A stretch of 64,000 nucleotides of DNA. Source: Chiloscyllium plagiosum. Its lineage: Eukaryota. Positions 1-40,549 of this stretch are shown in pieces. The DNA lies in the NCBI RefSeq assembly GCF_004010195.1, contig NC_057756.1:1094265-1158264 (forward strand). The letters are read 5' to 3'. A program made the position numbers and the translations under genes. How positions within the stretch are numbered: position 1 is the first letter of the stretch; each line of letters begins with the position of its first letter. The notes under the pieces were generated by a model that had not been told where the DNA came from, did no database searches, and worked only from the letters and a program-made list of their open reading frames with translations.

Positions 1-1690
1 TACTTCTCAATAACGTTTGTTTTCACATTCAGTGGGGCCATCTGTCCATGTCCGCTAACACGGCCCAGGAACGTGACATGGGATTTGGCGAAGTCACTCT
101 TAGCCACGTTTATCACCAAGTCTGCTTCCTGAAGTCAATTGAATAATTCCGGTAAATTTTGCAAATGTTCCTTTCAGGTGGGACTAAAAATCACCAGGTA
201 GTCGATGTATACCACATAATTGGGTAATCCAGAAATGACTTTATTGGTTAGTTTTTGAAATGTGTCTGGCAACTTTTTATAATAATAAATGGCATGCCAT
301 TATTTTGATACATTCCATTCATTGTTATGCAATCTGATATTGTCTTGCATCGTTCTCTGAATAAATCCATCTTAAAAATATATGTTGCTTGATCCACCTT
401 CTCAATACAGTCTTTCAAACGTATAATCAAATATGAATCAGACATTGTAACTACATTTACTTTACAACAGTCTACACATAACCATATGTTTTGGCGTTTG
501 TACTTTGGCGTTCCAGTCACTGCAACTCATTTCAATTATTTTGTCTTTGAGCATGCTTTCAATCTCTTTTTGAACCAGTGTCAATGTTAGTGGTTTAAGT
601 CTATAACAATGTTGCTTAATGGGAACAGCATTTCCCATATCTACATCAAGTGCAATCAGATTAATACTTCCCAGCTTATTTCCACATATCTCCTCATGCC
701 ATAGCAATAACACTTTCAGGAGATTTCGATTTTCCCCGTAAGGTAACTCAATAGTTTATCCCAATTTTAACAACTTCCTCATTGTCCAATTTCGGTTGAA
801 GAATGTCCAATGAAGAATCTCTGATCCTGGTTTTTCACTCTATGTTGTAACCATTAACACATCCTCCATTTGCTTTCTTTCCCCATCAAAATACCTTTTG
901 AATATGCTCACATGACACACTTTGTGAGATCAATTTCTGTCTGGAGTGCTTATCAAATAGCTCCCCTTGATCAATTTCCTTTCAACTTGTTAAGGTCCAC
1001 CAATCCTTTTTTTTAAGTGTTCACCTATCACCAGAAGTAACACTAACACTTTATCTTCAATAGCAGAATTGCCAGTTTTTGATTTCTTCTCTCCTATTTG
1101 TTTCATCATGTACTGTGATATTTTAAAATGCTGTCTACCCAACTTCCCCACTCTATTTAAGCGCTCCCTAGAACTTGGCATGTGGTCCAAATATGCGGAC
1201 TCTGAATTCTGACTTACCTATTTCTCCTTAACTAATTTCAATGTTCCTCTCATTTCATGCCCAAAAACAATTCAAATGGTCTGAATGTGGTAGATTCATT
1301 TGGTATCTCTATTGCCAAAAAGTACATATGGAATTCCTTTATCCCAATCATCTGGGTGGTCTTGACTATGCGCACTTTTAACACCTGATGCCACTTTTCA
1401 AGTGCACCTTGAGATTCTGGATGGTAAGCCCTCAATTTTGAATTGTTTTATTCCTAAGCCGTCCATAACATCTGTGAATAATTTTGATGTGAAATTTGAC
1501 CCTTTGTATTATTGTCTCTCTGTCGGTAGTCCGTATCTAGTGAAAAGTTTCAGCAACTCTTCTGCAATCCTTTTGAGCTGTGATTCTGCGTAATGGAATG
1601 GCATCTGGAAAGCTCGTGGACACATCAATCATTGTCAACAAATACTGATTCCCATTTTTTGTTCTATGCAAGAATCCTACGCAATCAATT

Positions 1691-1916
1691 TGTTGTTGTT
1701 GGGTCGCCATAATCTTACCAGACCATAGGGGCTGCTCTCTCATTAAAGAGAAGTGACTCGTAGCAATTTAACCTGAGGGCCACAAGACCTCTGGCGAAGT
1801 TGAGAAGGAGATTCCTTCATGACAGCCTCAAACCAGTGATGGGAACTGAACCATTGCTACTGGCATCACATGGCTGTGTAAACAAACGACCCATCGAACT
1901 GAGCTAAAACGATTTG
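1691..1916 (-). mobile_element. tRNA-derived SINE inserted in the Gmr1 integrase
   Basis: Minus strand begins TTAGCTCAGTT (A-box-like) with GGTTCAGTTCC (B-box-like) and ends in a (CAA)n tail. Flanked by imperfect GCAATCAATT/GCAAACAATT. Related copies at ~6822-7028 and ~23715-24190. Confidence 0.65.
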
Positions 1917-4386
1917 TGCAAACAATTAAGGCCCTCTTAAAAGGTTCCTCAGATGCAGGAATGAGTATTAAAGTTGCTGGTTTTATTACTGCCTGTGGCT
2001 TTCCAATTACCTGACATGTATGATATCTCTTGCAAAATTCAACTATGTTCTTATGAAGTCCAGGCCAGTAAAAAAAAAGTTTTATTTTAACTTGATATTT
2101 TCTTAAACTTAAATAACCTCCTACGCGTATTTCATGTGCTAACCACAAAACCTCATTCTATATATGACCGGCAATTCAACTTGATGAACTTCTGCCGATT
2201 TCTCATCTACCTGAGTATATGCTGGTCTCCATTTCCTCACTAAGGCAACATTTTTAGTACAGTAGCTTTCAGGGATACACACAGATTCCTTTCTCGTACG
2301 CTTTTGGATACAATTACTTCAGTTTTTCATCTTTCTCTTGTAACTCAGTTAATCTCTCTGAGCTAAAATATCCACTTTGTCCGTCAGCTGTTCTGTCTTG
2401 TCTCAACCATTCGATCAAACACGGTTTCTGATAATTCTACTTCAACTTCCTTATCTGTATTCTTTGAATTCTCTTCCTGTTTCAGCTGGTGACTTTGTGA
2501 TCTTGTCACCACACAGTCAGGAAAAATACCAGGATATATTTCCTGTAGTACCTCAGTTGACTGATTTTCCACTAGATTTTAAAACGCAGTAGACAGCACG
2601 ACTACCTGTGACCCAGCTATGTTGTTACTAAGGACAAATTAAATTCCTGGAACCTGGAGTTCTTCTAGTACACCTGCCATGATTTCTCCACTCTTCACCA
2701 GAAGCTCTACTCACTTTACATAATGGAGCACTTCTCGACTCACCATGAAGTCCACATACCAGGACGTTTTCCTGTCAATAAACCTTCTGAGTTGCATATC
2801 TCCACATCTCTCAACATCATATATTAACATGGCCTGGTATATCTTAATACTGTAATGTCATTAACTCCTGCTCCTGGCCTATGCAAGTAAGCATTACCTC
2901 CTCGTCCTCCCATAGGATTCTGGTGCAACTATTTTTAGATTCCACTGAGCTTTTGTTCAACACTTCCACAAAATTCACTTTCTTATCCTGTTTTCCTACA
3001 TCCATCTTCCCAGTATTATTTTGAACGCAGCAACACTGTGACTTCGTGTGGCCCAATATGTTCCATGAAAATGTTGGAGCTTTTTCACTTCTTCTCCCTT
3101 CATGGATTTTCTTTTTACCCTGTGGTAAGCTATCTTTATGCTATTCACCATGACCTACTTGTCCTTTACCTCCTGACGATTTCTCTTTTCCCGAATTTCT
3201 ATTCCTCATGGATTCAAATTGACGTTGGAAGGCAGACTTTGATTTTTGAACCAAGTCATAATCATCAGCCATTTCAGCTGCTAATCTTGCCATTTCAATT
3301 CTGTGCTCTTCAACGTGTATTCTCACTATATCAGGAAGTGAATTTTTGAATTCCAACAAAATAATCTCTCTAAGACCGTCATATGAGACCATATGCTTGG
3401 TCTGTTTTAATGCCCCTATCCACCTATCAAAATCACTTTGTTTGATTGTTTCAAACTCAATATCTATTTGATCGGGATCCCTCCTTAAATTCCTGAAACA
3501 GTCTGTAGGTTTCTGGTACACTGTCATATGCACTTAATATGGCTTTCTTCACCTCCTCATCACCATCCCAGACACCTCCTCTGATAGTAATTCAAATATC
3601 TCATTCGCTCTACCTACCAAGTTTCTTTGGATCATCAGAACCCACATAGTCACTGGCCACTGCATTTTTTACCCACTTTCTCCAATGAGGTGGAAAAATC
3701 TTGTACATTCTTCTCATCAAATTTAGGCAATGGTTGGATATATTTAAAACAGGCATTTAGCTACAATGGGTTTGCTCATCCTCTCAATCCGCCTCACTAA
3801 CCTACCTTCTACCTTCATCCCTACCCTTTTAAGCCAACTTTCCTGTCTGAATGCCAATTTATGAAGTTCAAACTCTTTCCTCCTAATTTTTTTCATTTGA
3901 TTCTTCCAAAGGGATTATTTCCTTTTCTTTTTGTTCTTCTGGAGCATTTCGTCCTTTTTCTCTTTCTTCTGCTTTTAACCTCAACTAAAGTGCTTCATGT
4001 CGTTTTCATGTTCAAGCTGTCGCATCCACAATTGAATTCCAGCCATTTCTAAAGATTCGAATGGCATTTACAGCAATCTTAAATGCCGAACTATTGCTGT
4101 AATTACCACCCTTTTACTCACAGAAAGCAACTCCAACTCCAGCTGGTCTGTCAATTCCACCAGATTTACCTTGCTCAACTTCTGTAAAACGCCCAAAGCC
4201 ACTTCTTTCACCCCCAGAAAATCTTCAGTGATTGAAAGAGACACTGCTAGACTAAGCACTATTTGAAGCAAACGAATTCAACACACTAAACAAAAGACAC
4301 TAACATCTATCACTCACCACCTTTGAGTCCAACAATCCTGAACCCAAATTGTAATGCTCGAATCAATCCCAACATGAACCCCAATC

Positions 4387-4917
4387 TGTAATGCACTAGG
4401 CAGACTTCCTGAAAATATTTGAAACAAGCAGCCTAAGCCATAACTTTCTCTTATTTTAAAGGATGTGAAGTGCATAGTCCGGTTGTGACGCCGCTGGTCA
4501 AATCGCTCGGCTATAAGCAAAAACAGAATTTATTTAAGCACTACATGTGAAATGAGAACAAAAGAAAATGGAATTTAGAATAAACTCAACAATTGGAAAA
4601 CTTAAGCGACCTAATATGGCAACTTAACTTAGGAGGTGTTCCAATCCAGAATATTCCTGAAACACACCCCTTGGAAAAAAGGGAAATTGAAACACTGATT
4701 CTTACAGGGAGGAGGGACGAACATCAAAAGAGATTTCAAAGACAGAGTCTGTCAGGTTGCGTTTGCTGAAACTTGGAACCAACAAACCAGAAAAAAAACG
4801 TGAACTTGAACTGACCAGTCATTTTTAAACGAAGCTCTTTTTAGCAACTCTGCTTTTACAACCTCTCTTAAGAAAAAGAGGACAAAATAACCTTGCTAAA
4901 GTGACAGCATTGTTACA
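4387..4917 (-). repeat. 5' LTR of the Gmr1-like element
   Basis: TGTAA...TTACA termini. A degenerate tRNA-Pro-like PBS (TGGGGTTCATGTTGGGATT, minus strand) is adjacent on the gag side. Similar to solo LTRs at 5635, 18751, 20176, 33866 and ~45370-45781. Confidence 0.75.
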
Positions 4918-5886
4918 CAGCACATACCGATTTAATGAGGGCAATTTGACAAATAAAGTTTAACAGACGTTTAAAACTGTGACTGGATAAATGCCGCGAA
5001 TGATTTCAAGAATATTCAATTAAAAAAAACTCAATGCCAGTAATCGTAGTGCACCCTTCTTTGTCGCTGGTATGAGAACCTCCCCCAAACTTTTGCTCTT
5101 TCATTGCCAACTTCTAAAGTTCAAAACCTTTCGCTTTCTCCTTGTCTTCTGCTAGGGCCTTCCTTTCATTGTTTTTTCTTCACCGTTTGTAATCGAAATT
5201 TAAACTGTTTCATTGCCCTATCTTCTTCCCTCACCGCTGCCTCCAATTCTAGCTGCTTCATTTGCAAATGAATTTTAGCAATTTCCAGTGAATCTGAATG
5301 CATTCTTGGCAACGGGAAATGCAAAGTCATTGCCATAACTGTTGCCCCATTTCTTTGCAGAAATAGGCAACTTCAACTTCAGCTTCCTTGTCAATGCCGA
5401 AAGGTTTGCGTTGCTCACTTTCGTAAAACATCAAAAGTGACTCTATCAAAACCAGGAAAGTTTTAGAGACAGAAAGGCTCATGTTTACATAAGACATACT
5501 CTATAACCTACCAGAACGAAACACCTCCGCTCCTCCCGAAAGAAATCCAAAATATATCACTGATTGGTTTTACATCCAAAAATGCAACACCCAGGCTGGA
5601 GTTAGAAATTTTGATCCTGACAAGAGGCCGAATTTTTGATGGACCAGACTAAACTCTCTTTAAGAATATCGGTGAGACAGCCTAAATCCTAACTTGAATA
5701 TTTTTAAAAGGCAAGTTGTTAGGTGCTGTGTCCCAGGTGTAATTTGATTTGTTACACTACTTGGCTTTCAAGCAAACATACTTAATTCTTAAACTGCAGT
5801 AAAAATCCAAGCAAAAGAAAGAAGAATTAGGATAAAGCTAACTCTATTGGAAAACTTAACAGAGAAACAGATTACTTAACTATGAA

Positions 5887-6036
5887 GCTGGAAATGTGTT
5901 GCTGGAAAAGCCTGAAGAAGGGCTTATGCCCGAAACGTCGATTCTCCTGTTCCCTGGATGCTGTCTGACCTGCTGCGCTTTTCCAGCAACACATTTCCAG
6001 CTCTGATCTCCAGCATCTGCAGACCTCACTTTCTCC
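5887..6036 (+). mobile_element. 150-bp Penelope-like terminal-repeat insertion with hammerhead motif
   Basis: Exact 14-bp TSD TACTTAACTATGAA (5873-5886, 6037-6050). Perfect 24-bp internal inverted repeat (5887-5910 / 5978-6001). Confidence 0.85.
5908..5943 (+). ncRNA. Minimal type I hammerhead ribozyme motif
   Basis: CTGAAGA-A-GGGC-TTAT-GCCC-GAAACGTC: intact core, 4-bp stem II, palindromic ACGT in place of stem III, GUC cleavage triplet. Stem I is weak. Confidence 0.7.
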
Positions 6037-7255
6037 TACTTAACTATGAACCAATATAATAGCATCCGTTAGTCACAACATTGGCAAAGCCAAATTCAGT
6101 AAAACAGATTGTCTCACGTGATTCTCGGAGCGGACAGAACTCCAGTTTGTTGCTGTTGTGGAGTGAGGTGTGATAGCTTCCATCGCCACCTTCAAGCTCA
6201 ACAATTACTGAAAGCTAAACAGAAATCCTGATACTGTGGGAGTCTGTCATGCTGCTTCGAATTTTGCAACTTTTACAAGAAAAAGAAATCCCAAACTGTT
6301 TAATTTATTGGCTTGGAACAGACTTCTCTGCCGCTCTGTTTCAAACTCTGCAGGAACAGGACAAAGTACACACCGACAACATACACGCCTGCGTATAGTG
6401 AAAATAAATATACATTTCTTACACAAGTTCGCATTTTTGTTTAATAGGGCATTTGTGTCTTAGTACATCTGATTCCATAAAGTTGCGGCATGGATGCAGC
6501 AATTCCTTGTGAAGGCAGCAAAAAGCGAATGAAACATAAAAGAGGGAAAGTTTTACTTCAGATGTAATGAGCATTGAGGAGGTCACAACTGTATTAGTGC
6601 ACACAGTTACGTTTTCCTTAATTTGACATAATTATTTTATTAAGATATGTTCACTGAAGCTTTATTCGTGAAATTGATGAGTGAAATGGCTTTATCTTCT
6701 TCAGATTTTATGTGGTTTACGTATGGGGGGTGGGGGGAGGTCAGAAGAATGAGAAGTGATCGTATTGATACATGTTTTTGGGGAATATGATCGTGTATGT
6801 CAAGCAAGATAAGGCCGCCGTAGCCGCATGCGAAGCTCTGGCTGTTTTCCAAATACAGGGAGATGATTCGTTGTGGTTTAACTAAGGGGCACCACGTTAC
6901 TTGTGGGAAGAGAGATTGAGAAAATCAGCCGTTAGTGTCAGGGTGAGCTGTTTCAGCAAGTGAATGTATGCTGTTAGCATCAAGCTGTATCAAGAACCAG
7001 CCATCCAGCTAACCGAGCTAACTGACCACACTCATGTGGACAATGTGCCAATGCTTACTCTTGAATCGAAGGATAGAGATTAGATTTGTGAACTCCTTCT
7101 TTTAACGCTGTGCTTTAAAGCATTGTGAGAGTAAAATTCTCTCTCCCACAATAGAGCGATTGCTGTTGCATTGATATTATTCAAGACTCAAGATATTTTT
7201 TATTGTCATCGGAGTCAAAGAACCTGCCATACAAACAGCTGCTCGACCACAGGCA

Positions 7256-7957
7256 GGTCAAAGTTAAAAATCACAAAACATCAGTCCAGTAGGTTTATTT
7301 GGCAGCACTCGCTTTTGGAGCGCTGATCTTTCATCAGGTGGTTGTGGAGTATAAGATCGTAAGACATAGAATTTATACCAAAAGTTTAGTGTGATGTAAC
7401 TGAAATTATATATTGAAAAAGACCTGTATTGTTTGTTAATTCTCTCATCTTTTAGAATGAACATGTTGGTTTCAGTTCTTTCATATGTAAATCGCAGAAC
7501 ATTTAAAAGTTACATTCTCAAGGGAACTTTTACTATTGGTGTCATTTCGGCCCAGATAATGCATTTAACGTGTGAGCTGCCCTATGTAAGACTGTCTGTG
7601 CCACAATGGTCAGACTGATTCCAATATAAAAATGGATTTACAGAATCTTACATGGAGTCATGTAGTGTTTGAACAAAGTAAAATGTAGTTCTGCAAGTAC
7701 AAATTGACCCCACAAACTTACATGTATATGTGTGTATGTGTGCATGTGGGTGTACGTGTGTGTGTGTGGGGGGGAGGCGGGGAGCGCGGTGCAGGGCTTG
7801 TGAGTGTCTGTGAGAGAGTGTATGTGAGTGTAAATGATACAGTCTGTGAGAGGGTGCATGTGTGAGTGTGGGAGTGTGGGAGTGTATGCTCCCACACTCA
7901 CACATGCACCCTCTCACAGACTTATACCCCAGTCCAATACAGGCATCTCCAAATCAT
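7256..7957 (-). mobile_element. Penelope-like element 3' fragment with (CA)n tract, degenerate hammerhead and fold-back junction
   Basis: Minus strand CACCTGATGAAAGATCAGCGCTCCAAAAGCGAGTG (7306-7340). Similar to 61260-61865. 34-bp perfect inverted repeat at 7841-7922. Confidence 0.7.
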
Positions 7958-8442
7958 GACCGTCAGATCAACAATGGTCTAAATGAATGGTTGACGACTC
8001 TCAGTCAATCAAAATGTCTATTCCCATGTAATCATGGTCATAAGTTGTCAGGGAGCTAGTCCGCTAGCATCAGTCCACCGATAATTTCCAGATTATAATA
8101 CCAACTATGTTCTTCTGATTTGTAATGCTATCATCGAGCCGCAGCTCAAACGTTAACTGAGACACTGCAAGTTGAAAGTGAAACACTTACTTTCTGTTAT
8201 AAACATCAATCTGCATTGCAGAGAAATCAACAGAATCTACGATCAGCTCAACAGTAAATTGCCTAACTAGCGCTACTACAGAGAACTGGAATGGAACAAT
8301 TAGAGATCGCTACGAGTGTTTGGCCAATTTTCAAAATGCATGTGCTTTGAACTTTGATATGGCTGTGAATTATTTGCCACCTTTTTAGCATCGGAGCTAA
8401 GACTCGAAGCTTATTCAATTTTTCCATCTGTCTGTGATTAGC

Positions 8443-8552
8443 AGCAGCAATTAAGAGGTGAAGTCATTTCCTTGGAAACTTGTCATCTGTATAAAATAGC
8501 AGCAAATGAGAGGTGAAGTCATGACATTGGAGACTTATCATCTATAGAAAAC
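8443..8552 (+). promoter_or_regulatory. Putative GPCR proximal promoter: 2 x 55-bp tandem repeat containing TATAAAA (8490-8496)
   Basis: AGCAGCAAxTxAGAGGTGAAGTCAT...TTGGAxACTTxTCATCTxTAxAAAA occurs twice. The TATA-like box lies ~130 nt upstream of the ATG. Confidence 0.4.
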
Positions 8553-8620
8553 AAACTTAACTGGAAAGGCTTTGCTCAGCACATCTCGGAGACAAGCTCA
8601 GATAATAACACTTTTCTGCA

Positions 8621-8690
8621 ATGGGTGATCCAGTCATATTTCAAATAGAAAAAATTTTCTATCCAGTCATTGCTGGCATTGGAGTTGTTG
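8621..8690 (+). CDS. GPR139-like class A GPCR, coding exon 1
   Basis: GCAATGG start context. Encodes MGDPVIFQIEKIFYPVIAGIGVV plus one nt, then a G|GTAAGT donor. Phase 1 joins in frame to 13922. Confidence 0.88.
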
Positions 8691-9362
8691 GTAAGTCGTT
8701 ATCACAATTGTTAATAGTCTCTTTTCCTGTTAAAACTATTGTTACATGCAAGTAGTTTCTCGACGTTAAATTTCCATATTTCGTGTTTTTATTTCCTGGG
8801 ATGAACAAACAATCCTTTAAATATTTTCATGTTTTATTGTAGCTGAGCTACGATAATTTATTTTAAAATGATATCTATCCAACCATTGTTATCATGTCGT
8901 TGTCCATATCGAATGCAGAGGAAATTGCTGTTCGAGGTAAGAACTAATATCAGATCCGTCAAGTCTTCTTTCAAAACTGACCAGTCGTTGAATATTGTTT
9001 CAGAAATGTATGCTCACTTGTTGACATTGTGACAGCACACACACTAACATAGAGGATACTTATCATACTTACACCTCAAAAACAATGTTTCACTTGCACT
9101 GTATAATCAATACCTTCATTATGCATAACCCTTTTACACCTATTCCTATATCAGAGATCCGGCTCCTGCACAGACTATGCAGCCGTTTGTTCTTTCTTCC
9201 ATTCTTTTCTTAATTCACCAATAATGAAATCATTGGTGTGAAGTCTACAAATTGTAATGGTTTTTGTGTTTATTGTATTAGTTGCTCCATTTTCAACCAT
9301 GGCCTTTTTTTTTTGGTTTTGCATACATTATGGGAGAGGTAATTGAATAAGCAATGCACATT

Positions 9363-9980
9363 AGTATGTAAGTTAGCTCATTGAGCTTGAAGATTTGCTT
9401 TCAGACGTTTTCTCACAATACTGGATAACATCATCAGTGAGAGTCTCTGGTGAAGCCTGGTGGTATGTCCTGCCTCTGTATTTATAGGTCTTGGTTTCTT
9501 AAGGTGGGTAATGTCATTTCCACTTTTTTTTTTGCAAGGTAAGTTGGATAGGATCTAAATCCATGTGCTTATTGATGGAGCTCTGGTTAGAATGCCATGC
9601 TTCTAAGAATTATCTTGCATGTCTTTGTTTCACCTATGTTAGGATGTGTGTGTTGTCCCAGTCAAAGTGGTGTCCTTTCTTCTCTGTTTGTACAGAAACT
9701 CCTGATAGTGGGTCATGTCTTTTGGTGGCCAGTTGATATTCATGTATCCTGGTGGCAAGTTTCCTGCTAGTTTATCCGATGTAGTGCTTTTTACAGTTCT
9801 TGCATGGTATTTATAAATGGCGTTAGTTTTGCTGGTAGTATCTAAAGGATCCCTTAGATTCATTAGTCGCTGTTTAAGTGTGTTGGTAGGTTTGTGAGCT
9901 ATCATGATGCTAAGGGGTCTGAGTAATCTGGAAGTCATTTCTGATATGTCTTTGATATAAGGTAATGTGGCTATGGTGTA
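9363..9980 (-). mobile_element. Penelope-like element 3' fragment (GIY-YIG region plus terminal repeat)
   Basis: ORF 9639-9938 (RLLRPLSIMIAHKPTNTLKQRL...KTNAIYK) is homologous to 38696-39142. Degenerate hammerhead at 9401-9440. Confidence 0.8.
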
Positions 9981-11129
9981 TTATAGCCTACAATAATATA
10001 AAATAATATTGGATCTTCAAGGCTTCAGAAATTCTTCACTTTCTCACACACAGCTCACACCTATGCCTGACATCTTCTCTTCAAACAGGACAAAGTTACT
10101 TCTTGAAAGTCACATGATCGTCACATACGCATACATTTGTGTAAGTGTGTACATAAATATGAGAAAAATGAGGAACAGAGTCAATAGAGAGATAGTGTGC
10201 AGTAAAAAAATGGAAAACAAGAAGTGAGAGAGGATAATAACAATGCACAAAGGGGAACGGATCAGAAGACATAGCAGCAAAGAGATAATGACACCTATTT
10301 TCAAACGTAATCAATTATACAATAACACATGAAATTGCAGAGACAGAATATATGTCTTGTAGTTTGGCAAGGCAATGGTCATCTTTAAAGCATTAGTAAA
10401 ATATATACGTTCCTCGATGTATTTCCTGATATGTTCCTTAAAATCTGAACTGGAAACAATAATTTTCTAATGTCCTACAACGTATCTGTTGCTTTGCCAC
10501 CTATCTATTTGCTAATACTGTCTCGCTCTTCAGCTGGCTCTGCCAATCCATTCTGAAGTCATAAATTCACTGCACTGTCTCTATCTACCCTTCCATTCAC
10601 TTCCAACACTATTGACAACAGCAGTTCCTGAGATGCTCCAACAGGCATGATACTCAGAATGCAGTAACAATTGTTTTGCCATACTCCTTCCACCTAATCT
10701 TCCCGAGTATGGTGTCAATTTCTCCTTCCCATTCTTCAGATAAACTGTTTAAATCTCTCAACAGCTTTTTCTAGACTTTGGATACGCTTAGCCACAACTC
10801 ATTCAATACTCCGATAAGAAATGTGAAAACATCATACAGGTTCAGGTTAACATGAAAGAAAAGGTGTGAAGTGATACGTTTTGGAACACAACATGAAGAA
10901 AATTACTATGAAATAAATGGTACCATTACAAAGGCGTATATAATATTTTAACAACTGAAAAATTCGAATTGTTAAATAACAAGTTGGAAAAGTTTTCATC
11001 TCAGAGAAAACCAGAGAAATGACACCATTTAAGCAAAAGTGAGCTTAGGTGAGCTAATTGTTTATAAAACAAGAGTTATCCATAAATCAACTCTTGAATA
11101 TTCACCAGGTACGTTATCTCAATCTCTCA

Positions 11130-11389: not shown

Positions 11390-12648
11390 CGTAGAAGACA
11401 GGAGCAGGAGTGAGCACATCCATCCATCGAGACTGCTCCCCCATTCAATATGATCATTATTTATCATCAAGTGTAATACACTAATCCTGCCCTCCCTCCG
11501 TATCCATTGAGCTGCAAGAGCTATATCTGCCTTCTTCTTGAAAACACGTAATGATTATTTTTGAATGATTTTCTGGAGTAATGAATTCCATAGGCTCATG
11601 ACTCACTTGGTGAATACATTTAGAGTCATAGAGCCATAGGGCCAAAGAATCCTACAGCACAGACACAGGCCCTGTCGACCAAAATGCCCATCAATGCTAA
11701 CTCTATTTCCTTGCACTTGGCCCATATCCTTTGAAACCTTTTCAATCCATATATTTGTCTAAATGCCTTTTCAATGTTGTTAATGGACACGCCTCAAACA
11801 CTTTCGCTGGCAGCTCATTCCATATGTGTACTACTCTCTGTGTTAAAAGTAACACTTGACACTCAGTTTAGCTTCCTGGTCACTTTGTTGCAAATATCTT
11901 CTGCACTCATTCCAGTTTAATAACATGCTACATATCACAAGGTGACCAAAACTGAAGACAATACTCGAAGTGTCGCCTCAATAACATCCTGTGCAACTGC
12001 AATATAACTTCCCAACTTTTATATTCATTGCCCTGACTGACCAAGGCCAGTGTGCTTAAAGCCTTCTTCACTACCCTATCTAGCTGTGACTCCACTTTCA
12101 GAGAACCGTGCACATGAACTCCAAGGTCCAATTGTTCCACTACACTCCTTAAGGCTCCAACATTCACCATGAAATTCTTACCTTGATTTGAGGTTCCAAA
12201 ATGCAAGACTTCAAATCAATCTATATTAAACTCCATTTGCCACTTCTCTGCCCATTTCTCCAGCTGATCAAAGTCTTGCTGTATTTTCTGATAACCTTTA
12301 TCACTTTCCACAATACCTCCTATTTTAGTGTCATCAGCAAAGCTACTAGTCATGCGTTGTGTATTCTCATCCAAATTATTGACATAGGTAAAAAACAGCA
12401 ATGGACCCTTCAGGCACTCCACGTGTCATAGGCCTCCAGTCCAACAAACATCCTTTCACTATTACCCTCTGCTTCCTTCCGTCAGGCAATTGTGTATCCA
12501 ACTTGCCAACTTCCCCTGGATTCCATGGGATCTAACCTTCCAGAGCAGTCTACCATGTGAAACCGTATCAAAGGCCTGACTGAAATCCATATAGACTACG
12601 CTTAGCACCCTGCTAGCTACAACCTTCATCACTTCATCGAAGAACTCA
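11390..12648 (-). mobile_element. CR1 LINE fragments (RT C-terminus and 3' ends)
   Basis: GPLLFFTYVNNLD...SSFADDTKIGG...KWQMEFN and HFEYCLQFWSP. Confidence 0.85.
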
Positions 12649-13200
12649 ATGTGGTCTCCTCTACATCGTGGAGACAGGAAACCTACTCAGAGAGCATTTC
12701 AGGGGGACACACAACAAACAACCTCACTGCCCAATGGCCAACCACTGCAATTCTCCCTCCTACTCAAGGAAGGACATGCAAGTCCTGGGTCACCTCCACG
12801 CCAACGGAAGAATGCCTCATTTTCCACCTTGGGAATCTTTAATGACACAACATCAACACCGACTTCACTAGGTTCCAAAGCTCCCCTATCTGCACCTTGT
12901 CCAAGATCTAACCTTCCAACTCGGCAATGTCCTCTTGACCTGTTCTACCTGTCCATCTTCCTTCCCACCTATATGGTCCACCCTCCCCACTGACCTAGCA
13001 CAATCATCTCCCCCACCAACTGCATCTATCTATTGTCTTCTCAGCTACCTTCCCCAGCCTCACCCCTACCCTTGGATTTATCTCTCAACACCTTTTATCC
13101 TCCTTATTCCGAATGAAGGGTGTATGCCCAAAATGTCAACTCTCCTGCTCCTTGGATACTGCCTGACCTGCTGGGCTTTTGCAGTACTGCACGTTTCCAC
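12647..13200 (+). mobile_element. Penelope-like element 3' fragment
   Basis: QCGLLYI/GETGNLLREHF GIY-YIG-like remnant, C-rich 3' region and a decayed hammerhead (~13109-13140). Confidence 0.7.
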
Positions 13201-13921
13201 TCAGAATTATGCCTGTGGGAGCTTGCAGGCATTGCCTCTGAGTTTAATGTAAATATTGTTGACTGGTCTTAGCTACATCATGGTTAACTGGTTTCTTTTT
13301 TTATCAAATGACTGAAGAAACATCTGCAGCATTTATTGTGTTGCTGGTTAAATTCATTTCTTAATTTCTCACTGATTTCCACATTTTAACTGGATTTCTT
13401 CAAATTATTGTTATTTGACATTTATACTAAATGTAACCTCAATGTTTTGGATGGGTACAGTAGGACTTTTAAATTGTTTAACAATTTCCAGTTTAACATA
13501 TTAAACCACTGGTGAAGTAATCCGTTGGAATGCAAATGCTAGAAGCATAAACTTTTCCACAAGATCTGGTGAACATGTAAGTTTTTTGCTGCTTCATTCT
13601 GCAAACGAACACAATCTAGACTCTGGATACAATAGATAACATCAAAAGAAATTCAATCAAACAACTGCAATGAAAAAATAAATAAGAGTGGGCAGTCAGA
13701 GCAAAAAATACTGGATAGCTTTCCAAAACCTGACAGAAGCACACGTATGTTTATAATTTCCTGCTATGCTGAATTATTTTCTGAAAGCATGGTTAAGTTC
13801 AATGATTAATACTTCACAACTTTAAGCAAGAACAAAATGGAACACATCAACTCTAATAGAGTAAACTGCTGCAATGTTTCAAAGTGCTTTGACTAATCGT
13901 AGTTTTGTTTTACCCTTGCAG

Positions 13922-14823
13922 TCACTGCTGTGCCGATTGTGATCCTGTCTCGAGGAAACTGTGGGCTTTCAAAAGGTATCACTTCATATTTGATAGCCAT
14001 GGCAGTGGGCGATTTACTGTTCGTTTTCTGGGATGTAATATTGTCACGGATCGCGTTTATGTATTTCCCGAAGTCATTCCTGGAAATAACTCCTATATGT
14101 AGGCTTATAACAGTCCTGTCATTAGCTGCCAATGATATTTCCGTGTGGTTCACAGTAGCCTTTACTTTTGATCGATGCATGGCTATATGCAGTCAGAAAC
14201 TGAAGAGGAAATACTGTACTAGCAGAATAGCAGTAATTATTTTAGTAATGATTAGCATTTTGAGCTGTTTAAGATGTTTACCATGGTGGTTTGCTCTCAA
14301 AGCTTATTTTATAATCGACAATATTCCCTGGCACTGCATGCCTAAGTCTAGCTTCTATTCCTCAGCAGCATGGCGAGCATTTGATTACATTCAGCTCATT
14401 TTAACACCTTGCATACCCTGCTTTGTAGTTTCGCTGTTGAATGCTTTTACGGTCAAACACATTTTGCAATCGAGTAGAACACGCAAGGGACTTCTGGGGC
14501 TCAAGCAACGAAACGAACAACAGGATGCCGAGATGGAGAATCGAAAAAAATCCATTACTTTGCTGTTTGGCATCTCGGGCATTTTTTTGCTGTTATGGTT
14601 GCCTGGTGTTATCTTTTTTATTTATCGTCAAATAACAAATGTTTTTATCATTACACAGATTAACAATACTTTAATTACTATTTCCACAACGCGAATGTTT
14701 CAGACTCTGAACTGCTGCACTAATACATGTTTTTACGTTGTTTCACAAAGTAGGTTCAGACAGGAGTTGAAGAAAGCAGCAAAATATCCATTTGCTGTGA
14801 TATTTAATTTCATTAAATCATAG
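13922..14823 (+). CDS. GPR139-like class A GPCR, coding exon 2 (protein 323 aa after splicing)
   Basis: Pyrimidine-rich TTGCAG acceptor at 13921. Intact ORF with rhodopsin-type motifs: IVILSRGNCGLSKGITSYLIAMAVGDLL, SVWFTVAFTFDRCMAIC, DAEMENRKKSITLL, LLWLP, NCCTNTCFY. A paralogue of an expanded family rather than a provable GPR139 orthologue. Confidence 0.92.
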
Positions 14824-15537
14824 AAGAACCCAATGTATTTACAATTACCCAAACTAATTCGATGAATTATAACCTTCAGAACAATTCTCAAGTTGCATTA
14901 TGCCTTTTTTGTATTCAATTATTTCCTTGATTTTGTTTCCAGAATATTTGCTTCCAAACCCCTAGCTTTTTGTCATTTCATCGTTTCATGTATCCTCATC
15001 TCTCCACCTTATCACTTTATCCATTCGTTTGGGTCAACATAAATCACCAACCACACTTCTGAACTAAGAAGTAACTACTTTTTTTTACAACAGCTAATTA
15101 TATTTGCATAGTAGATAAATAACTATAACTGATTGGCTTGACACTATTGGTCAAAACTTGCAGAATCGAACTGTGCACACATATACACACAGTTTAAAAA
15201 GCATTTTGGTCATAGGGCAAAGAGAAAAAGATGAGAAAAATGGTTCAATAGCACCACTTCTCACAATTCGATAGAGTGTCCTTTTGTTTTGAAAGTCCTT
15301 CAGATCAATTGTCTGACCTCCTCTATTGGATTCTCTGGCTTCTTCATTTGAGCAGCACAGTGACTGAATCAAATAATGCAAAGTTTCTCACTTACCAAAT
15401 GAAGACAACAGCATACAACAACTGTTGGGAGAAAACAAATTGGTTTTCTTCATGTTTTAGATAACATAGTGAGGAGAGGCAAGTACACTGCCTTACGTTT
15501 TTTTAAATATTGTAAAGGCTTCTAACAGCATCATTAA

Positions 15538-15712
15538 CCCTCCTCTAGCTTATCTCTCCACGCTTCAGGCTCTCTGCCTTTATTCCTGATGAAGGGCTTT
15601 TGCCCGAAACGTCGATTTTGCCTGTCCTCGGATGCTGCCTGAATTGCTGTGCTCTTCCAGCACCACTGATCCAGAATCTGGTTTCCAGCATCTGCAGTCA
15701 TTGTTTTTACCT
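15538..15712 (+). mobile_element. 175-bp Penelope-like terminal fragment with hammerhead
   Basis: Same family as 5887-6036 and 27717-28012. Ends in CCAGCATCTGCAGTC...TTTTACCT. Confidence 0.85.
15582..15617 (+). ncRNA. Minimal type I hammerhead ribozyme motif, intact core
   Basis: ATTC-CTGATGA-A-GGGC-TTTT-GCCC-GAAACGTC-GATT. Confidence 0.75.
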
Positions 15713-17049
15713 CATAAATCACCAACCACACTTCTGAACTAAGAAGTAACTACTTTTTTTACAACAGCTAATTATATTTGCATAGTCGATAAATAACTAT
15801 AACTGATTGGCTTGACACTATTGGTCAAAACTTGCAGAATCGAACTGTGCACACATATACACACAGTTTAAAAGGCATTTTGGTCATAGGGCAAAGAGAA
15901 AAAGATGAGAAAAATGGTGCAATAGCACCACTTCTCACAATTCGATAGAGTGTCCTTTTGTTTTGAAAGTCCTTCACATCAATTGTCTGACCTCCTCTAT
16001 TGGATTCTCTGGCTTGTTCATTTGAGCAGCACAGTGACTGAATCAAATAATGCAAAGTTTCTCACTTACCAAATGAAGACAACAGCATACAACAACTGTT
16101 GGGAGAAAACAAATTGGTTTTCTTCATGTTTTACATAACATAGTGAGGAGAGGCAAGTACACTGCCTTACGTTTTTTTAAATATTGTAAAGGCTTCTAAC
16201 AGCATCATTAAACAGGTATTCTGCTACTCAGGAGACAATCAGAAATCTATTACAAGGGGTGTTATTGACCTTCGGTATACACAAGTGGTCACAAGATCAT
16301 CAATCAATCACGAACATGTTAGCAACTGAATTTCACTTTTTAACTATAGCCTCAGTCTGCTCCATTCACTGATCGTGTTTCCCCACGCAGTTGAAGTGTA
16401 CAATAAAGTGAAGCAAATCACAAGAACAGCCTGGCATCCTAAGGGAAATTAAGTGTGTACGATGTAAAATAGAAAAGCTCATAAAGTGGAAAAGCGCTAG
16501 GAAAACGTGATGCTCGCGATCAGGAAATGGAAATCTGCTAGGTTTGCGCACAGCTGGAAAAACATTTTTTTTAAATCGAAGAAATCTGTGGAAAATTGCA
16601 ATTCTTTATCTCTGAGGTAAGGGATAGCTGAAAGGCAGCTTCAATAAGACATGTGACACTCGGAAAGGTAACATGATTTCTGCGCATAGTTTTCAACTCA
16701 TAAGTTAAAACACCTGCCATGCCAGTAGATTGACCTTTAGTCGAACAGCAGGACACGGGCTCGGGTGAATCCCAGGACAAATTTCTAAGTTCAGGTTTAG
16801 GGCATGCAACTTCTGAACAAAGAGGACTTTGCCTGCAATTTAGTGATAACGGGTCAGGAAGTCAGGCATTTGGTAATATAATATAATAATGTTTGGTAAA
16901 TATGTTAACATTTTGTAGTTTTCTGAAAGCACAGTTTTGAATAGGTATATCCCGTTTAACCATAGAAAAGATGCATTTTGGTTAAGCTTTTGAAATCTGA
17001 ACAACCAATTTTCAATGCAAAGTTAGTGCTTAAAACACGTTTGAGCATT

Positions 17050-17370
17050 TGGGGAGATATGACGCCCGAGTGACATTATCGATGGTCTGCTAATCCAGAA
17101 ACCCAAGTATTTTCCGAGTACCTGGGTTCAAATCCCACTATCATAGATCATGGGATTAGATTTCAATAAGTATTTGTAATTGAGAGACAGATGGTAACCA
17201 TAAATCCATTTTTGGAAAACCCTTTGTGGTTCACTAATGTCCTAAGGGAACCTTATCTGGTCTCACCTATGTATGTCTCTTGACGCACAGCAACGTAGTT
17301 GATTCTTGGCAATTAGGGATGGGCAATTAATGCTCGTGCAGTCAGCGATGCCCTCATCCCATGAGTCAAT
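17050..17370 (+). mobile_element. Old tRNA-derived SINE (SacSINE1/Deu-like)
   Basis: B-box GGGTTCAAATCCC and 3' GGCAATTAGGGATGGGCAATTAATGCT. A related minus-strand copy lies at ~24345-24675. Confidence 0.5.
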
Positions 17371-17533
17371 TTTTAAAAAGTTTCATTATAGTTAGATTTT
17401 CTGTACAGTATATGGCATGTAACTGTATTTCACATTATAAAATCCAAGATTATTTGTACGTCGTTGGAGACCTTCTGAGCTGCTCCCCTCACGAATGCAA
17501 TGTGAACGCGGACTGCCATGTGTCAACTTTATT

Positions 17534-20374
17534 ATTCAACACTAGTTACTTAGCCTTATCAGCATTACAACTATTAATTACAGCGAATTCGTCTATAAAC
17601 CTTGTTGTTTCATAAAGTGTTTATTTTAATTAGCATTTAGAATCAAAATCAAAAATACAGAAGCATAAATAAACATGTTGTGGTGACATGGCTCCAACCA
17701 TGTAAGAAGAAACGCCATTTCAAAAGTACATTTCTTCTAAGGATATTTGATACACGTAGCACAAATCTCAAAACTTGCATCATTTTTATGCTTCCTCGTT
17801 CCTTAAACAACATTGTACAATTTTAGCATCTGTCAAGTCTTTTACAGGTTCCATCATTTTTCAATCAGGTCAATGCAACTGTACTTAAGTTATAATTTCT
17901 AACAATCCGAATAAGCATAGAAGCTTCGGAAGTGGAAGTGGGATAAGGCCATTGACCCTTCCCACCTGCTCTAACATTCATTATGACCACATTGATGATT
18001 CCAGCCCCTCCCATTCCCTTCCACTCCTCCCAGCCATCTACCAGATTCATTCCTCCCATTGACCAACCAGGTCGCACCCTCTACCTGTCTTCACCTATCC
18101 CCACTTCACTACCCTGACCCTGCAACCCCCTTTATCTGCAAATCTCCTTACACTCATCCCCAGTGTGATATCCAACTCCTTAAAATCCTAACATATTTCA
18201 GCATCGGTTACCATCTGTGTGCGTGAATCTTGCAGTCTCAGCAATCACCGAATGAAGAAGTCTTTTTATTTCTGTCTTAATCGATTTGCTCTGTAGTTTT
18301 AAACTGTGATCGCTCGTTCTGCATTCCCTGGCCATTGGAAACGTACTTCTTGCATCTACTCTCTCTAGTTCTGCTGGAATTCTCTATGTTGAGATCAGAT
18401 AATCCCTCATTCTTCTAATATTTCATGAATATAGATATAAAGTATTTGACGTATCCTCGTACAGTCCCTCCACCCCAGAAAGGAGTCTGTTAAAATTCCA
18501 CTGCATTCCCTCCACACCAAGAATATGTCTCCTCAGATGAAGTGACTACAATAGCACATAACATCCATGTGTAGTCTCATCACAGCAGGCATTTGAATCC
18601 TCTCCCTGTGAACGTCCACAGACGTCCTTACCTACAACCTGCTGCATTCACATCCATCAGCGATTGGTAAACAAAGTCAACCACAGCTTTGCAATAAATT
18701 ATTGAAACAGAACACCCTATTTGAATAGTGTCACGTTGTGAATTTCATATTGTTATGGACCTGGCCAGACCCCGTCAAAACATTTGTACAACACCCAAGC
18801 TTTTCAAGTTGTTTTAAGCAGATGTAAAGTGGATATTCTAGGACCCATTCAGCTGGTCGCAACACTCATTTATTTACAAATTTACAAATGTAACAAACAG
18901 TTATGAATATAACACAAGCAAAGGAAAATATAATTTAGAATAACAACTGTTTGAAAAAATTCAACACTAGTTACTTAGCCTTATCAGCATTACAACTATT
19001 AATTACAGCGAATTCGTCTATAAACCTTGTTGTTTCATAAAGTGTTTATTTTAATTAGCATTTAGAATCAAAATCAAAAATACAGAAGCATAAATAAACA
19101 TGTTGTGGTGACATGGCTCCAACCATGTAAGAAGAAACGCCATTTCAAAAGTACATTTCTTCTAAGGATATTTGATACACGTAGCACAAATCTCAAAACT
19201 TGCATCATTTTTATGCTTCCTCGTTCCTTAAACAACATTGTACAATTTTAGCATCTGTCAAGTCTTTTGCAGGTTCCATCATTTTTCAATCAGGTCAATG
19301 CAACTGTACTTAAGTTATAATTTCTAACAATCCGAATAAGCATAGAAGCTTCGGAAGTGGAAGTGGGATAAGGCCATTGACCCTTCCCACCTGCTCTAAC
19401 ATTCATTATGACCACATTGATGATTCCAGCCCCTCCCATTCCCTTCCACTCCTCCCAGCCATCTACCAGATTCATTCCTCCCATTGACCAACCAGGTCGC
19501 ACCCTCTACCTGTCTTCACCTATCCCCGCTTCACTACCCTGACCCTGCAACCCCCTTTATCTGCAAATCTCCTTACACTCATCCCCAGTGTGATATCCAA
19601 CTCCTTAAAATCCTAACATATTTCAGCATCGGTTACCATCTGTGTGCGTGAATCTTGCAGTCTCAGCAATCACCGAATGAAGAAGTCTTTTTATTTCTGT
19701 CTTAATCGATTTGCTCTGTAGTTTTAAACTGTGATCGCTCGTTCTGCATTCCCTGGCCATTGGAAACGTACTTCTTGCATCTACTCTCTCTAGTTCTGCT
19801 GGAATTCTCTATGTTTAGATCAGATAATCCCTCATTCTTCTAATATTTCATGAATATAGATATAAAGTATTTGACGTATCCTCGTACAGTCCCTCCACCC
19901 CAGAAAGGAGTCTGTTAAAATTCCACTGCATTCCCTCCACACCAAGAATATGTCTCCTCAGATGAAGTGACTACAATAGCACATAACATCCATGTGTAGT
20001 CTCATCACAGCAGGCATTTGAATCCTCTCCCTGTGAACGTCCACAGACGTCCTTACCTAGAACCTGCTGCATTCACATCCATCAGCGATTGGTAAACAAA
20101 GTCAACCACAGCTTTGCAATAAATTATTGAAACAGAACACCCTATTTGAATAGTGTCACGTTGTGAACTTCATATTGTTATGGACCTGGGCAGACCCCGT
20201 CAAAACATTTGTACAACACCCAAGCTTTTCAAGTTGTTTTAAGCAGATGTAAGGTGGATATTCTAGGACCCATTCAGCTGGTCGCAACACTCATTTATTT
20301 ACAAATGTAACAAACAGTTATGAATATAACACAAGCAAAGGAAAATATAATTTAGAATAACAACTGTTTGAAAA
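17534..20374 (+). repeat. Head-to-tail 1.42-kb tandem duplication (17534-18958 / 18959-20374)
   Basis: Offset of 1425 nt (identical ORFs at 17865 and 19290). About 7 substitutions and small indels by eye. The unit contains PLE, CR1 and LTR fragments. Confidence 0.95.
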
Positions 20375-36278: not shown

Positions 36279-36921
36279 ATTGTGTTTTGCAAATTTCATA
36301 AACTGCACTGTTTTAATCAGAACGCTTAGCAGAATTAGAAATGCAAGATTAATGCAGGGTGTTAATACAGAGGTCTAGTTTATAAGTGTGCCACATGCAT
36401 TCCTCATTTTTTTTTTCCAGGGAGAGAAACAGAAAAAAAAGACAGAGGCAGCATTTGAAAGATGTTGAATCAAAGATATTTGAGAAAACCAAGAGAAAAT
36501 GAAACAAAGGTTATCAGAAAATGCAATGGGTGTTTAATCAGGTTTCAAGCTATTTTTCACTTTTAACAATGGCAGAGTTGAAAGCTAATTGAGTTATAGT
36601 ATTGAAACAGACTCTTCGGTTCAACACCTCCTATACTGACCGAGATTCCCAAACTAAACTAGTCACACTTGCCTGCATTTGTCCCATATCCCTCACCTTT
36701 CCTGTTCATTTAACTGTCCAAATGCCTTTAAAATATTGCAACTATAACTGCATCTACCACTTCCTCTGACAGTTCATTCTATATACGAACTTTGCGACAA
36801 TGTTGTCCCTCAGATCAGCGCTTCGAAAGCTAGTAATTCTAAACAGACCTGATAAACTCTCACCTGGTGTTGTGTGATTTTTAACCAGCAACTCTGCTTC
36901 CATTTCCCTGATTCCATTCTT

Positions 36922-36978
36922 GCCCCGCCCTCTCAGCGAGCTGACGCCATCACGCCTCCGTCCCGTTTCCCTAGTAAC
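36922..36978 (+). promoter_or_regulatory. CpG-rich tectonic promoter: GC box (36922-36930) and RFX X-box (36965-36978)
   Basis: GCCCCGCCC and GTTTCCCTAGTAAC lie within ~80 nt upstream of an ACCATGG start, in a CpG-rich island. Confidence 0.75.
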
Positions 36979-37002
36979 TGCGCGAGGCCCCAGGAGCTGA
37001 CC

Positions 37003-37609
37003 ATGGAGGCGCGACTGGGGACCTTAGGCCCTCGGGCGCTGTGCTGGGCCCTGGTCGTGGGGATGCTAATGTGGACGAGTTCGCCGTTGACGGGGGAAGG
37101 TCTGGGCCCTGGTTCTGCAGCCGGAGTCGGACTGGTGGGGCCGGTTGACGTGACTTCTCCGCTCCCAGGTCCCCGGAGCGGGAGTAGCGGCAACCCTGAC
37201 CCTGTGAGGGTCGGAGGGGAGAGTGTGACCCCTGACCTTGTGAGGGTCGGAGGGGAGAGTGTGACCCCTGACCTTGTGAGGGTCGGACGGGACAGTGTGA
37301 TCCCTGACCCTGCGAGGGTCGGAGGGGACAATGTGACCCCTGACCCTGTGATTATCCCAGGGGAGAGTGTGACCCCTGATCCTGAGAGTGTGACCCCTGA
37401 CCCTATAAGTGCTGGAGGGGACAGTGTGACCCCTGACCCTGCAGTGGCTGGAGGAGGCAGTGTGACCCCTGACCCCACAGTGACCAGAGGAGGTAGTGTG
37501 ACCCCTGACCGCCCAGGCTCACAAGGGGCGAGTGTGACCCCTGAACCCAACCTGTGGTCCAGTCATTCCGTGAACCCGGGTGACGAATCATCTAAATGTC
37601 TGACAACAG
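37003..37609 (+). CDS. TCTN3: Tectonic-3, coding exon 1 (signal peptide plus Pro/Thr/Gly repeat region)
   Basis: ACCATGG Kozak; hydrophobic ALCWALVVGMLMWTSS; CAG|GTAAGG donor, phase 1, in frame with exon 2. Confidence 0.85.
37189..37584 (+). repeat. Coding 36-bp minisatellite (~11 units, VTPDPxxxGGxS)
   Basis: GTGACCCCTGACC recurs at a 36-nt period, with one 21-nt unit. Frame is preserved. Confidence 0.95.
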
Positions 37610-37840
37610 GTAAGGCAGCAGCAAGCCATCCAGCCTTTTGCTCCTGTTACTCTCTCTGCTCCGGTACCTTTTTATCATCGTTTGATTCCCTTTTGACTAT
37701 ACACCTGACTCATTCAGACTGAGTATTCCAGATATTTGTAACTTGCTGTTTGAAATCATTTGACTTACCTATATTGTCGCATCTCCAGTAGTTATCTGAT
37801 CTTCTTTCAATTTACAGATTGATTTTGGTATGTGAAGAAG

Positions 37841-38409: not shown

Positions 38410-38510
38410 AACTTTGTCAAAACTCCTTAGACAGCACCTTCCAAAGCAACAACCATTTCCACCTAGGCGGACGGAGGCACTGCTTACAAGTTTCTTCCAA
38501 TTCACTCATT

Positions 38511-40549
38511 GTTGTGGTTCTGTTTGCCGAGCTGGGAATTTGTGTTGCAGACGTTTCGTCCCTGTCCAGGTGACATCCGCAGTGCTTGGGAGGCTCCTGT
38601 GAAGCGCCTTTGTGTTGTTTCCTCCGGCATTTATAGTGGTTTGTCTCTGCCGCTTCCAGTTGTCAGTTCCAGCTGTCTGCTGCAGTGGCCGGTATTTATG
38701 GGTCCAGATCGATGTGTTTGTTGATAGAATCTGTGGCTGAGTGACATGCCTCTAGCAATTCCCTGGCTGTTCTCTGTTTGGCTTGTCCTATAATAGCAGT
38801 GTTGTCCCAGTGAAACTCATGTTGCCTGTCATCTGCGTGTGTGGCTACTAAGGATAGCTGGTCGTGTTGTTTCGTGGCTAGTTGGTGTTCATGGATATGG
38901 ATCGTTAGCTGTCTTCCTGTTTGTCCTATATAGTGTTTTGTGCAGTCCTTGCATGGGAATTTGTACACTATGCTGGTTTTGCTCATCCTGGGTATCGGGT
39001 CCTTTGTCCTGGTGAGTTGTTTTCTGAGAGCGGCTGTTGGTTTGTGTGCTGTTATGAGTCCTAGTGGTCGTAGTAGTCTGGCTGTCAGTTCAGAAATGCT
39101 CTTGATGTATGGTAACATGGCTAGCCCTTTGGGTTGTGGCATGTCCTCATTCTGTTGTCTTTCCCTTAGGCATCTGTTGATGAAAATGCGGGGGTATCCG
39201 TTTTTGGCGAGTACCTTGTAGAGGTGTTCGTCTTCCTCTTTTTGCAGTTCTGGTGTGCTGAAGTGTGTTGAACAGTGTCTTGATGCAACTTCTTTTGTGT
39301 GTGTTGGCGTGGTTGCTTTCGTAGTTCAGGACTTGGTCTGTGTGTCTGGCTCTCCAGTATACCTTTGTGGTGAATTCTCCATTCGGTGTTCTCTGTACTA
39401 TCACGTCTAGGAATGGGAATTGGTTGTCCTTTTCTTCCTTTCTAGTGAATCTGAATCCTGTGAGTGTGTCGTTGATGATCTGGTGTGTGTTTTCTATTTC
39501 TGTGTTTTTAATGATTACAAAAGGTGTCATCCACGTATCTGACCCAGAGTTTGGGTTGAATTTGCGGTAAGACTGTTTGTTCTAATCTTTGCATTACAGC
39601 TTGTGCTATGAGTCCAGAGATGGGTGAGCCCATGGGTGTGCCGTTGATTTGTTCATATATTTGGTTGTTGAATGTGAAGTGTGTTGTGAGGCACAGGTCC
39701 AGTCGTTTGAGTATGCAGTCTTTGTTGATAGGTTCCCCGTCTTGTTGTCTGTCCTGTATGTCCAGCAGGTTGGCTATTGTTTCTCTGGCTAGGGTTTCGT
39801 CGATAGAGGTGAACAGTGCCGTTAAATCAAATGAGACCATAATTTCTTCCTTGTCTATGTGTATATTTCTGATGATGTCCAAGAATTCCTGTGTTGACTG
39901 TATAGAGTGTCTGGATCTGCTGATCAGGTGTTTCAGTTTCTGTTGTAGTTCTTTGGCCAGTTTGTATTGTAGTTGTAATTCTTTAGCCAGTCACTCTCGG
40001 ACAACAACTCACCAGGATAAAGGACCTGATACCCAGCATGAGCAAAACCAACGTAGTGTACAACATCCCATGCAAGGACTGCACAAAACACTACATAGGA
40101 CACACAGGAAGACAACTAACGATCCGTATCCATGAACACCAACTAGCCACGAAACGACACGACCAGCTATCCTTAGTAGCCACACATGCAGATGACAGGC
40201 AGCATGAGTTCGACTGGGACAACACTACTATTATAGGACAAGCCAAACAGATAACAGCCAGGGAATTCCTAGAGGCATGGCACTCATTCACCGATTCTAT
40301 CAACAAACACATCGACCTGGACCCAATATACTGGCCACTGCAGCGGACAGCTGGAACTGACAACCGGAAGCGGCAGACAAACCAGTATAAATGCTCAAGG
40401 AAACAACACAGAAGCGCTTCACAGGAGGCTCCCAAGCACTGAGGATGTCACCTAGACAGGGGACGAAACGTCTGCAACACAAATGCCCAGCTCGGCAAAC
40501 AGAACCATAACAACGAGCACCCGAGCTACAAATCCTCGCACAAACTTTG
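38511..40549. mobile_element. Penelope-like element with inverted arms: RT + GIY-YIG on minus (38511-~39970), GIY-YIG + terminal repeat on plus (~39990-40549)
   Basis: VSFDLTALFTSI, GTPMGSPISG, WVRYVDDTF (RT). VVYNIPCKDCTKHYIGHTGR...REFLEAW (GIY-YIG). 12-bp TSD AATTCACTCATT (38499-38510, 40550-40561). Confidence 0.95.
40436..40475 (+). ncRNA. Minimal type I hammerhead ribozyme motif, intact
   Basis: GCA-CTGAGGA-T-GTCACCT-AGAC-AGGGGAC-GAAACGTC-TGC: 3-bp stem I, stem II, ACGT palindrome, GUC site. Confidence 0.8.

Follow-up and report, generated by a model that had tools for sequence, protein, structure and literature searches.

The window analysed here, a 64-kb stretch of the Chiloscyllium plagiosum assembly in which no N occurs, contains an open frame of a rhodopsin-family G-protein coupled receptor (GPCR) of the GPR139-like type. 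The frame is probably a last exon, and its nearest Atlas clusters are named 'probable G-protein coupled receptor 139' (0.97-0.98). Its stop codon lies at 14823, and 215 nt past it begins a host segment, A, which has no coding sequence and is present twice, as A1 and A2, on the two sides of an end fragment, P, of a Penelope-like element (PLE). Related PLE copies lie upstream of the frame, one of them with a target-site duplication (TSD), and a second direct duplication, B1/B2, lies downstream of A2. The features are as follows:

5873..6050, + strand: control, a PLE end fragment at 5887-6036 that has a 14-nt TSD and a short 5' piece in inverted orientation, from flank comparison
12617..13197, + strand: older related copy, a degenerate GIY-YIG-like frame (12617-12868) and then a hammerhead-bearing end, with a 76% DNA match to P over 85 nt
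13903..14823, + strand: rhodopsin-family GPCR open frame (GPR139-like), no in-frame start codon, Pfam 7tm_1 at E 1.1e-17
15038..15537, no strand: A1, upstream copy of the non-coding host segment, 500 nt
15538..15712, + strand: P, 5'-truncated 3'-end fragment of a PLE, 175 nt, from DNA matches to window copies
15586..15613, + strand: minimal type I hammerhead motif, single copy, read from the sequence against the descriptor of PMC4209133
15713..16211, no strand: A2, downstream copy of the non-coding host segment, 499 nt
17534..20374, no strand: B1/B2, tandem duplication of 1.42 kb whose junction has one extra base and no element, the copies differing by 7 substitutions and one 8-nt indel

The original prediction described two copies of 500 and 499 bp, about 98.6% identical, abutting a PLE fragment, and global alignment of the assembled sequence bore this layout out: A1 and A2 share 493 of 499 positions (98.6%), with six substitutions (five transversions and one transition) and a single one-base gap in a T run. 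P contacts both copies directly with zero spacer, and the likeness between A1 and A2 ends abruptly beyond either boundary. No further copy of A was found in the window at E<=0.01, and megablast gave two pairs of direct repeats of at least 95% identity in the window, A1/A2 and 17534-18957/18959-20374. The layout is that of the assembled sequence, from which the insert junctions are presumed to exist in the DNA as well.

Contigs from four of 24 sequencing runs were compared with positions 15690-18983 of the window, a stretch that takes in A2 and 23 nt of P, with A1 outside it. Runs X1 and X15, from two studies, had the best word shares and represent organism A, the same species as the window; X5 represents organism B and X10 organism C, both related species.

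P has no open reading frame; four further stretches of the window resemble its DNA, with 76-87% identity over 71-114 nt. Of the 15 joints listed, seven belong to contigs that match the last 21-25 nt of P, exit at 15711-15714 and carry on into differing sequences, and all four runs contain such contigs; position 15712 is therefore the natural 3' end of this PLE family. The summed contig depth reached 1477-10396 in the bin with the last 23 nt of P, versus 4-16 in most bins of A. In its fixed 3' end, 5' truncation and high copy number, P matches a PLE end fragment. Its natural 3' end meets the first base of A, which fits target-primed reverse transcription begun at that point.

The 5' truncation point of P lies 48 nt ahead of the core of the hammerhead motif. 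In addition to this core, the motif at 15586-15613 has the unpaired A after position 9, a 4-bp helix II with its G-C closing pair, and a palindromic 15.2-16.2 as the rudiment of helix III. Helix II was seen in the MFE fold; folding of the whole insert was not better than that of shuffles (z -0.83), and an Rfam search returned no hammerhead at the gathering score, nor at E<=10. The claim that the insert bears a hammerhead thus stands at the level of the motif, a putative minimal hammerhead, and not at that of an Rfam match. As described in PMC4209133, a single min-HHR gave no cleavage, and cleavage by min-HHR is dimeric.

The copy at 5887 had been taken as a member of the same family that makes an ordinary 14-bp TSD. 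The TSD is real (5873-5886/6037-6050), but the copy has only 82% identity to P across 114 nt and belongs to a related subfamily, not to an identical element. Exact flanking repeats shorter than 40 nt were scanned at seven PLE-like stretches of the window: 5887 has its clean 14-nt TSD, the stretch at 38505 has a 12-nt flanking match that is uncertainly placed, and the remaining five have 5-8 nt, so that no second long TSD occurs among the seven. The older copy at 12617..13197 may link the family of P to PLEs, as a lead only: the nearest Atlas cluster of its frame is GIY-YIG-named (0.93) with GIY-YIG on 23% of the cluster members, while Pfam gave no match to the frame and a pairwise comparison was not significant (E 1.9). 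The PLE family had zero matches in viral contigs, metagenome contigs and prokaryote genomes, as expected for shark DNA. A distinct PLE with a reverse transcriptase (Pfam RVT_1) and a weak GIY-YIG match (E 0.018) occupies 38505-40517; its inverted arms, 530 nt long, are at 91%, and near 40439 it bears a hammerhead-like motif of its own.

A preset test of the long-TSD reading was that the orthologous locus of relatives should hold a single 500-bp copy without the insert, and this was seen in the contigs of both related species (2/2). In X5 and X10 the match begins exactly at 15713 and crosses A into the downstream DNA, with 55 differing letters over 1634 nt in organism B and 67 over 1311 nt in organism C. 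Upstream of 15713 these contigs continue for 1809 (X5) and 1026 (X10) letters unlike P. As the compared stretch begins at 15690, this upstream sequence is judged by length; that of X5 extends to the old repeat near 13200, and the letters in both contigs would be the DNA upstream of A1. The relatives therefore carry one A without P, by contigs that show presence only, and no A-A tandem was seen in X5 or X10. At 85% likeness, the depth over 15800-16019 equals or nears that of a single contig in each run; near 16100, a few additional contigs match over a short stretch. Over most of its length A is accordingly not a dispersed repeat, in agreement with the original prediction and with the lack of other matches in the window. 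The idea of A as a multi-copy unit carried by the PLE was ruled out by the same single-contig depth.

During contig building, short links into high-copy repeats are pruned. Neither an A|P nor a P|A junction is present among the listed contigs of the four runs, and such public contigs are simplified graph paths that have passed a length filter (PMC12424806). The missing junctions are therefore weak evidence either way, the figures being from listed contigs only. X1 has one contig of 4211 nt, unbroken over 15713-18035 and with 1888 upstream letters unlike P, and in X15 a contig crosses 16211 from A into the downstream DNA. An unbroken contig running from upstream DNA (X) through A into downstream DNA (Y) was not accepted as proof that P is absent in the same species, because contigs can lose such joints.

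The absence of A|P and P|A from the listed contigs also speaks for an assembly artefact. In this explanation the animal would be heterozygous for P, inserted in the ordinary way at the start of A, and X-A of the empty haplotype was joined to P-A-Y of the filled one, so that A1 and A2 would be alleles and B1/B2 a possible switch back. It accounts for the exact layout, with P ending at its natural 3' terminus, and it agrees with the presence of two near-identical direct repeats within 1.3 kb. Heterotype false duplications are reported to be common, but mostly gap-separated (PMC9516828), whereas the copies here have no gap. The depth of X15 in A is 6.7 and 3.2 versus 7.2-13.8 in the unique flank, where a rough model, in which depth is not copy number, expects about 21-24 for a homozygous duplication and about 10-12 for two copies. 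The lack of doubling fits the artefact, yet this evidence is soft since X15 depths vary eightfold; in X1 a doubled A would shift the mean depth of the contig by only about 7%. Positions 15977-16061 and 18599-18659 are without cover in X15, and these gaps were unused as evidence. At 16203-16233 a low-depth A contig of X15 meets a fourfold deeper contig of downstream DNA, a depth step that hints at another allele entering.

The letters within A can be set beside these depths. At the six A1/A2 substitution sites the X1 contig has the letters of A2 at four and of A1 at two, and it also agrees with A2 in showing no gap at the T run; it has two differences from A2 and five from A1, with no third letter within A among the variants listed. 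X15 has A1 letters at all three A1/A2 sites covered, and one of its contigs, spanning 15788-15976, ends exactly at two A1/A2 variant sites. The mixed letters of X1 and the contig bounds of X15 favour the presence of both A1 and A2 in each animal. Furthermore, 7 of 500 positions are different between A1 and A2, versus 1 of 1340 nt between X15 and the window in adjacent unique DNA (Fisher p 0.0006, or p 0.02 assuming five heterozygous sites). The divergence of A1 and A2, about one third of that between the window and organism B, thus exceeds that of ordinary alleles, which stands against the artefact, and two paralogues fit better. The argument is weakened by patchy polymorphism, as X1 differs from B1 by six letters and one gap over 735 nt.

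B1 (17534-18957) starts 1.3 kb past A2 and is followed by B2 (18959-20374). The X5 and X10 contigs depart from B1 at 18957, and the contigs of the related species fit a single B. B1 and B2 share the states at 17663 and 18249 and a 2-nt gap at 18259, three states which the X1 contigs do not have; if X1 is the source animal, B1 and B2 are then not simply its alleles, contrary to a switch between haplotypes. The depth over B in X15 is 17.5-24.5, about double that of its unique flank, and this too speaks against the artefact, while in X1 it is not doubled (8.6 versus 9.0), as the artefact would have it. The tandem duplication of B is possibly polymorphic. X15 also has a PLE-free joint from 18598 back to 18094, with three shared letters and 505 nt, which is either a further duplication or a partial loss inside the B tandem. 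On balance the artefact is considered unlikely, though its chance is more than slight.

These PLE-free tandem duplications of 0.5-1.4 kb within 3 kb suggest another origin of A1-P-A2, namely a repair-driven tandem duplication in which P was captured as filler, or an older tandem duplication at whose seam P happened to insert. Against this, the natural 3' end of P is preserved, the seam shows no short TSD belonging to P, the contigs of the relatives show no A-A tandem, and a chance landing on one exact bond is very unlikely. This origin is held to be quite improbable.

The differences between A1 and A2 are lopsided. A1 shares the letter of both related species at five of the six substitution sites, and when the relatives serve as outgroup, the derived letter is that of A2 at all five polarisable sites, the sixth being three-state (sign test p 0.06). 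Such derived changes in A2 only are unlike the even ageing expected of TSD copies. C-G swaps make up three of the six substitutions versus 12% in the comparison with a relative (p about 0.03, post hoc), and the variant sites with derived A2 letters fall within 15787-16134. Chance, error-prone fill-in or differing haplotype origins can each suffice for the bias. The last of these belongs to a real inter-homologue join, in which P was inserted in the ordinary way on one haplotype and X-A of the empty haplotype was fused inside P, by a later out-of-register join or by a break in the homologue that captured the cDNA end; A1 and A2 would then never have been identical. It gives the best account of the asymmetry, it would explain the X1 contig if that is a real single-copy haplotype near A2, and it is in keeping with the other PLE-free duplications at the locus, B and the joint in X15. 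A collapse of A1 and A2 in the contig explains the X1 mosaic equally, however, and an allele with a longer P and a short TSD is absent among the contigs listed. As it requires two events or an inter-homologue join, and hence more steps, it is regarded as a minor possibility and fairly unlikely.

A1-P-A2 is thus probably real, a single and correctly observed PLE insertion of the long-TSD type, and the explanation held with somewhat better than even confidence is a single insertion in which the upstream end was joined at a point 500 nt downstream of the nick that primed synthesis. In the sequence of steps that we infer, a bottom-strand nick by the PLE endonuclease at 15037|15038 would come first, and reverse transcription would start at the natural 3' end of the element RNA and cover its last 175 nt. 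The resulting cDNA would then join a top-strand end 500 nt downstream (15537|15538) rather than about 10-15 nt away; this second end might be a nick farther along the same chromatid or a break in the sister chromatid. Fill-in synthesis would finally produce A1-P-A2, with the hammerhead as a passenger in the insertion. In a bolder form of this proposal, shark PLEs, which are present in very high copy, would regularly end an insertion at a distant second end, duplicating hundreds of host bases, and A2 would be made by error-prone synthesis. Error-prone fill-in would explain both the derived changes in A2 only and the three C-G swaps among six, and if the bolder form were true, PLEs would give rise in the germline to local duplications that carry clustered mutations from the outset; it is nevertheless put forward as a speculation with little chance of being right.

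Long TSDs are known from other retroelements. In human L1, TSDs over 100 bp were found in up to 10% of events in HeLa cells, for which a distal second nick was proposed (Servant et al., PMC5223499), and in NER-deficient lines the share of such events was 57-91%, 38% of those exceeding 1 kb (PMC5223499). As at P, a 5'-truncated retroelement stands between duplications of more than 100 bp, although the L1 cases arose de novo in cultured cells, whereas P is of a PLE, is known with its junctions from an animal assembly, and has had time to gather 1.2% substitutions. The zebrafish LINE ZfL2-2 gave a 1228-bp TSD in one of 25 wild-type insertions, likewise a rare long tail beside short TSDs, though in an L2-clade LINE in chicken cells and not a GIY-YIG PLE (PMC2666801). 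HERV-K(HML-2) has flanking duplications of 111-450 bp, the 250- and 111-bp cases being PCR-validated; these resemble A in being germline, in size range, in the empty sites found and in the authors' caveat of a 'pseudo-TSD', but the elements are integrase-based (PMC5488345). The same order of segment, element and segment also results from L1-bridged tandem duplication, in which the cDNA joins a downstream break in the sister chromatid; those events concern L1, are somatic or experimental, and reach 22.6 Mb (PCAWG PMC7058536; PMC11702581).

For PLEs themselves, the TSDs described are either lacking or 8-10 bp long (PMC3846280). In vitro, the protein of the anole PLE both cleaves and extends the two strands, acting at AT-rich sites, and the later steps are given as unresolved (PMC11167929). 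P resembles the endonuclease-bearing PLEs of these reports in its 5'-truncated end fragment, its min-HHR features and its AT-rich target (PMC3846280, PMC4209133, PMC11167929). Capture of host DNA by PLEs, as published in the parts of the literature consulted, puts the host DNA inside the element, whereas here it is duplicated around P. No long TSD of any PLE was found in the open-access literature, the domain of the search. Most likely, the P locus is an insertion scar that is rare and unusually large but of a type that other retrotransposons are known to leave. If its junctions are real, long TSDs extend from L1, L2 LINE and HERV-K to Penelope-like elements, and A1-P-A2 would bear on the second-strand step of PLEs. 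The tail of TSD lengths of this very abundant PLE family offers a cheap genome-wide test. By itself, a single non-coding event alters little.

The insertion had also been proposed as a route to local duplication in an expanded receptor family. As no coding DNA was duplicated and tandem duplications free of PLEs occur nearby, one of them at a distance of 1.3 kb, a link to receptor-family expansion is unsupported. A different effect may concern the GPCR 3' UTR. An ATTAAA hexamer at 16207-16212, which contains the end of A, is the first canonical poly(A) signal past the GPCR stop codon; it is interrupted at A1|P and whole at A2. As the first poly(A) hexamer is now at 16207, the event may have made the 3' UTR 675 nt longer, and on the sequence the insertion may have put a sense-strand hammerhead motif into it. 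Since A ends within ATTAAA, A was also considered as a reverse-transcribed host mRNA; this was rejected, the end of an mRNA being expected downstream of the hexamer and with a poly(A) tail. Farther downstream, the open frame at 36856-37722 combines a hydrophobic stretch at the N-terminus with a coding tandem repeat of 36 nt (37147-37546), and resembles a mucin-like exon.
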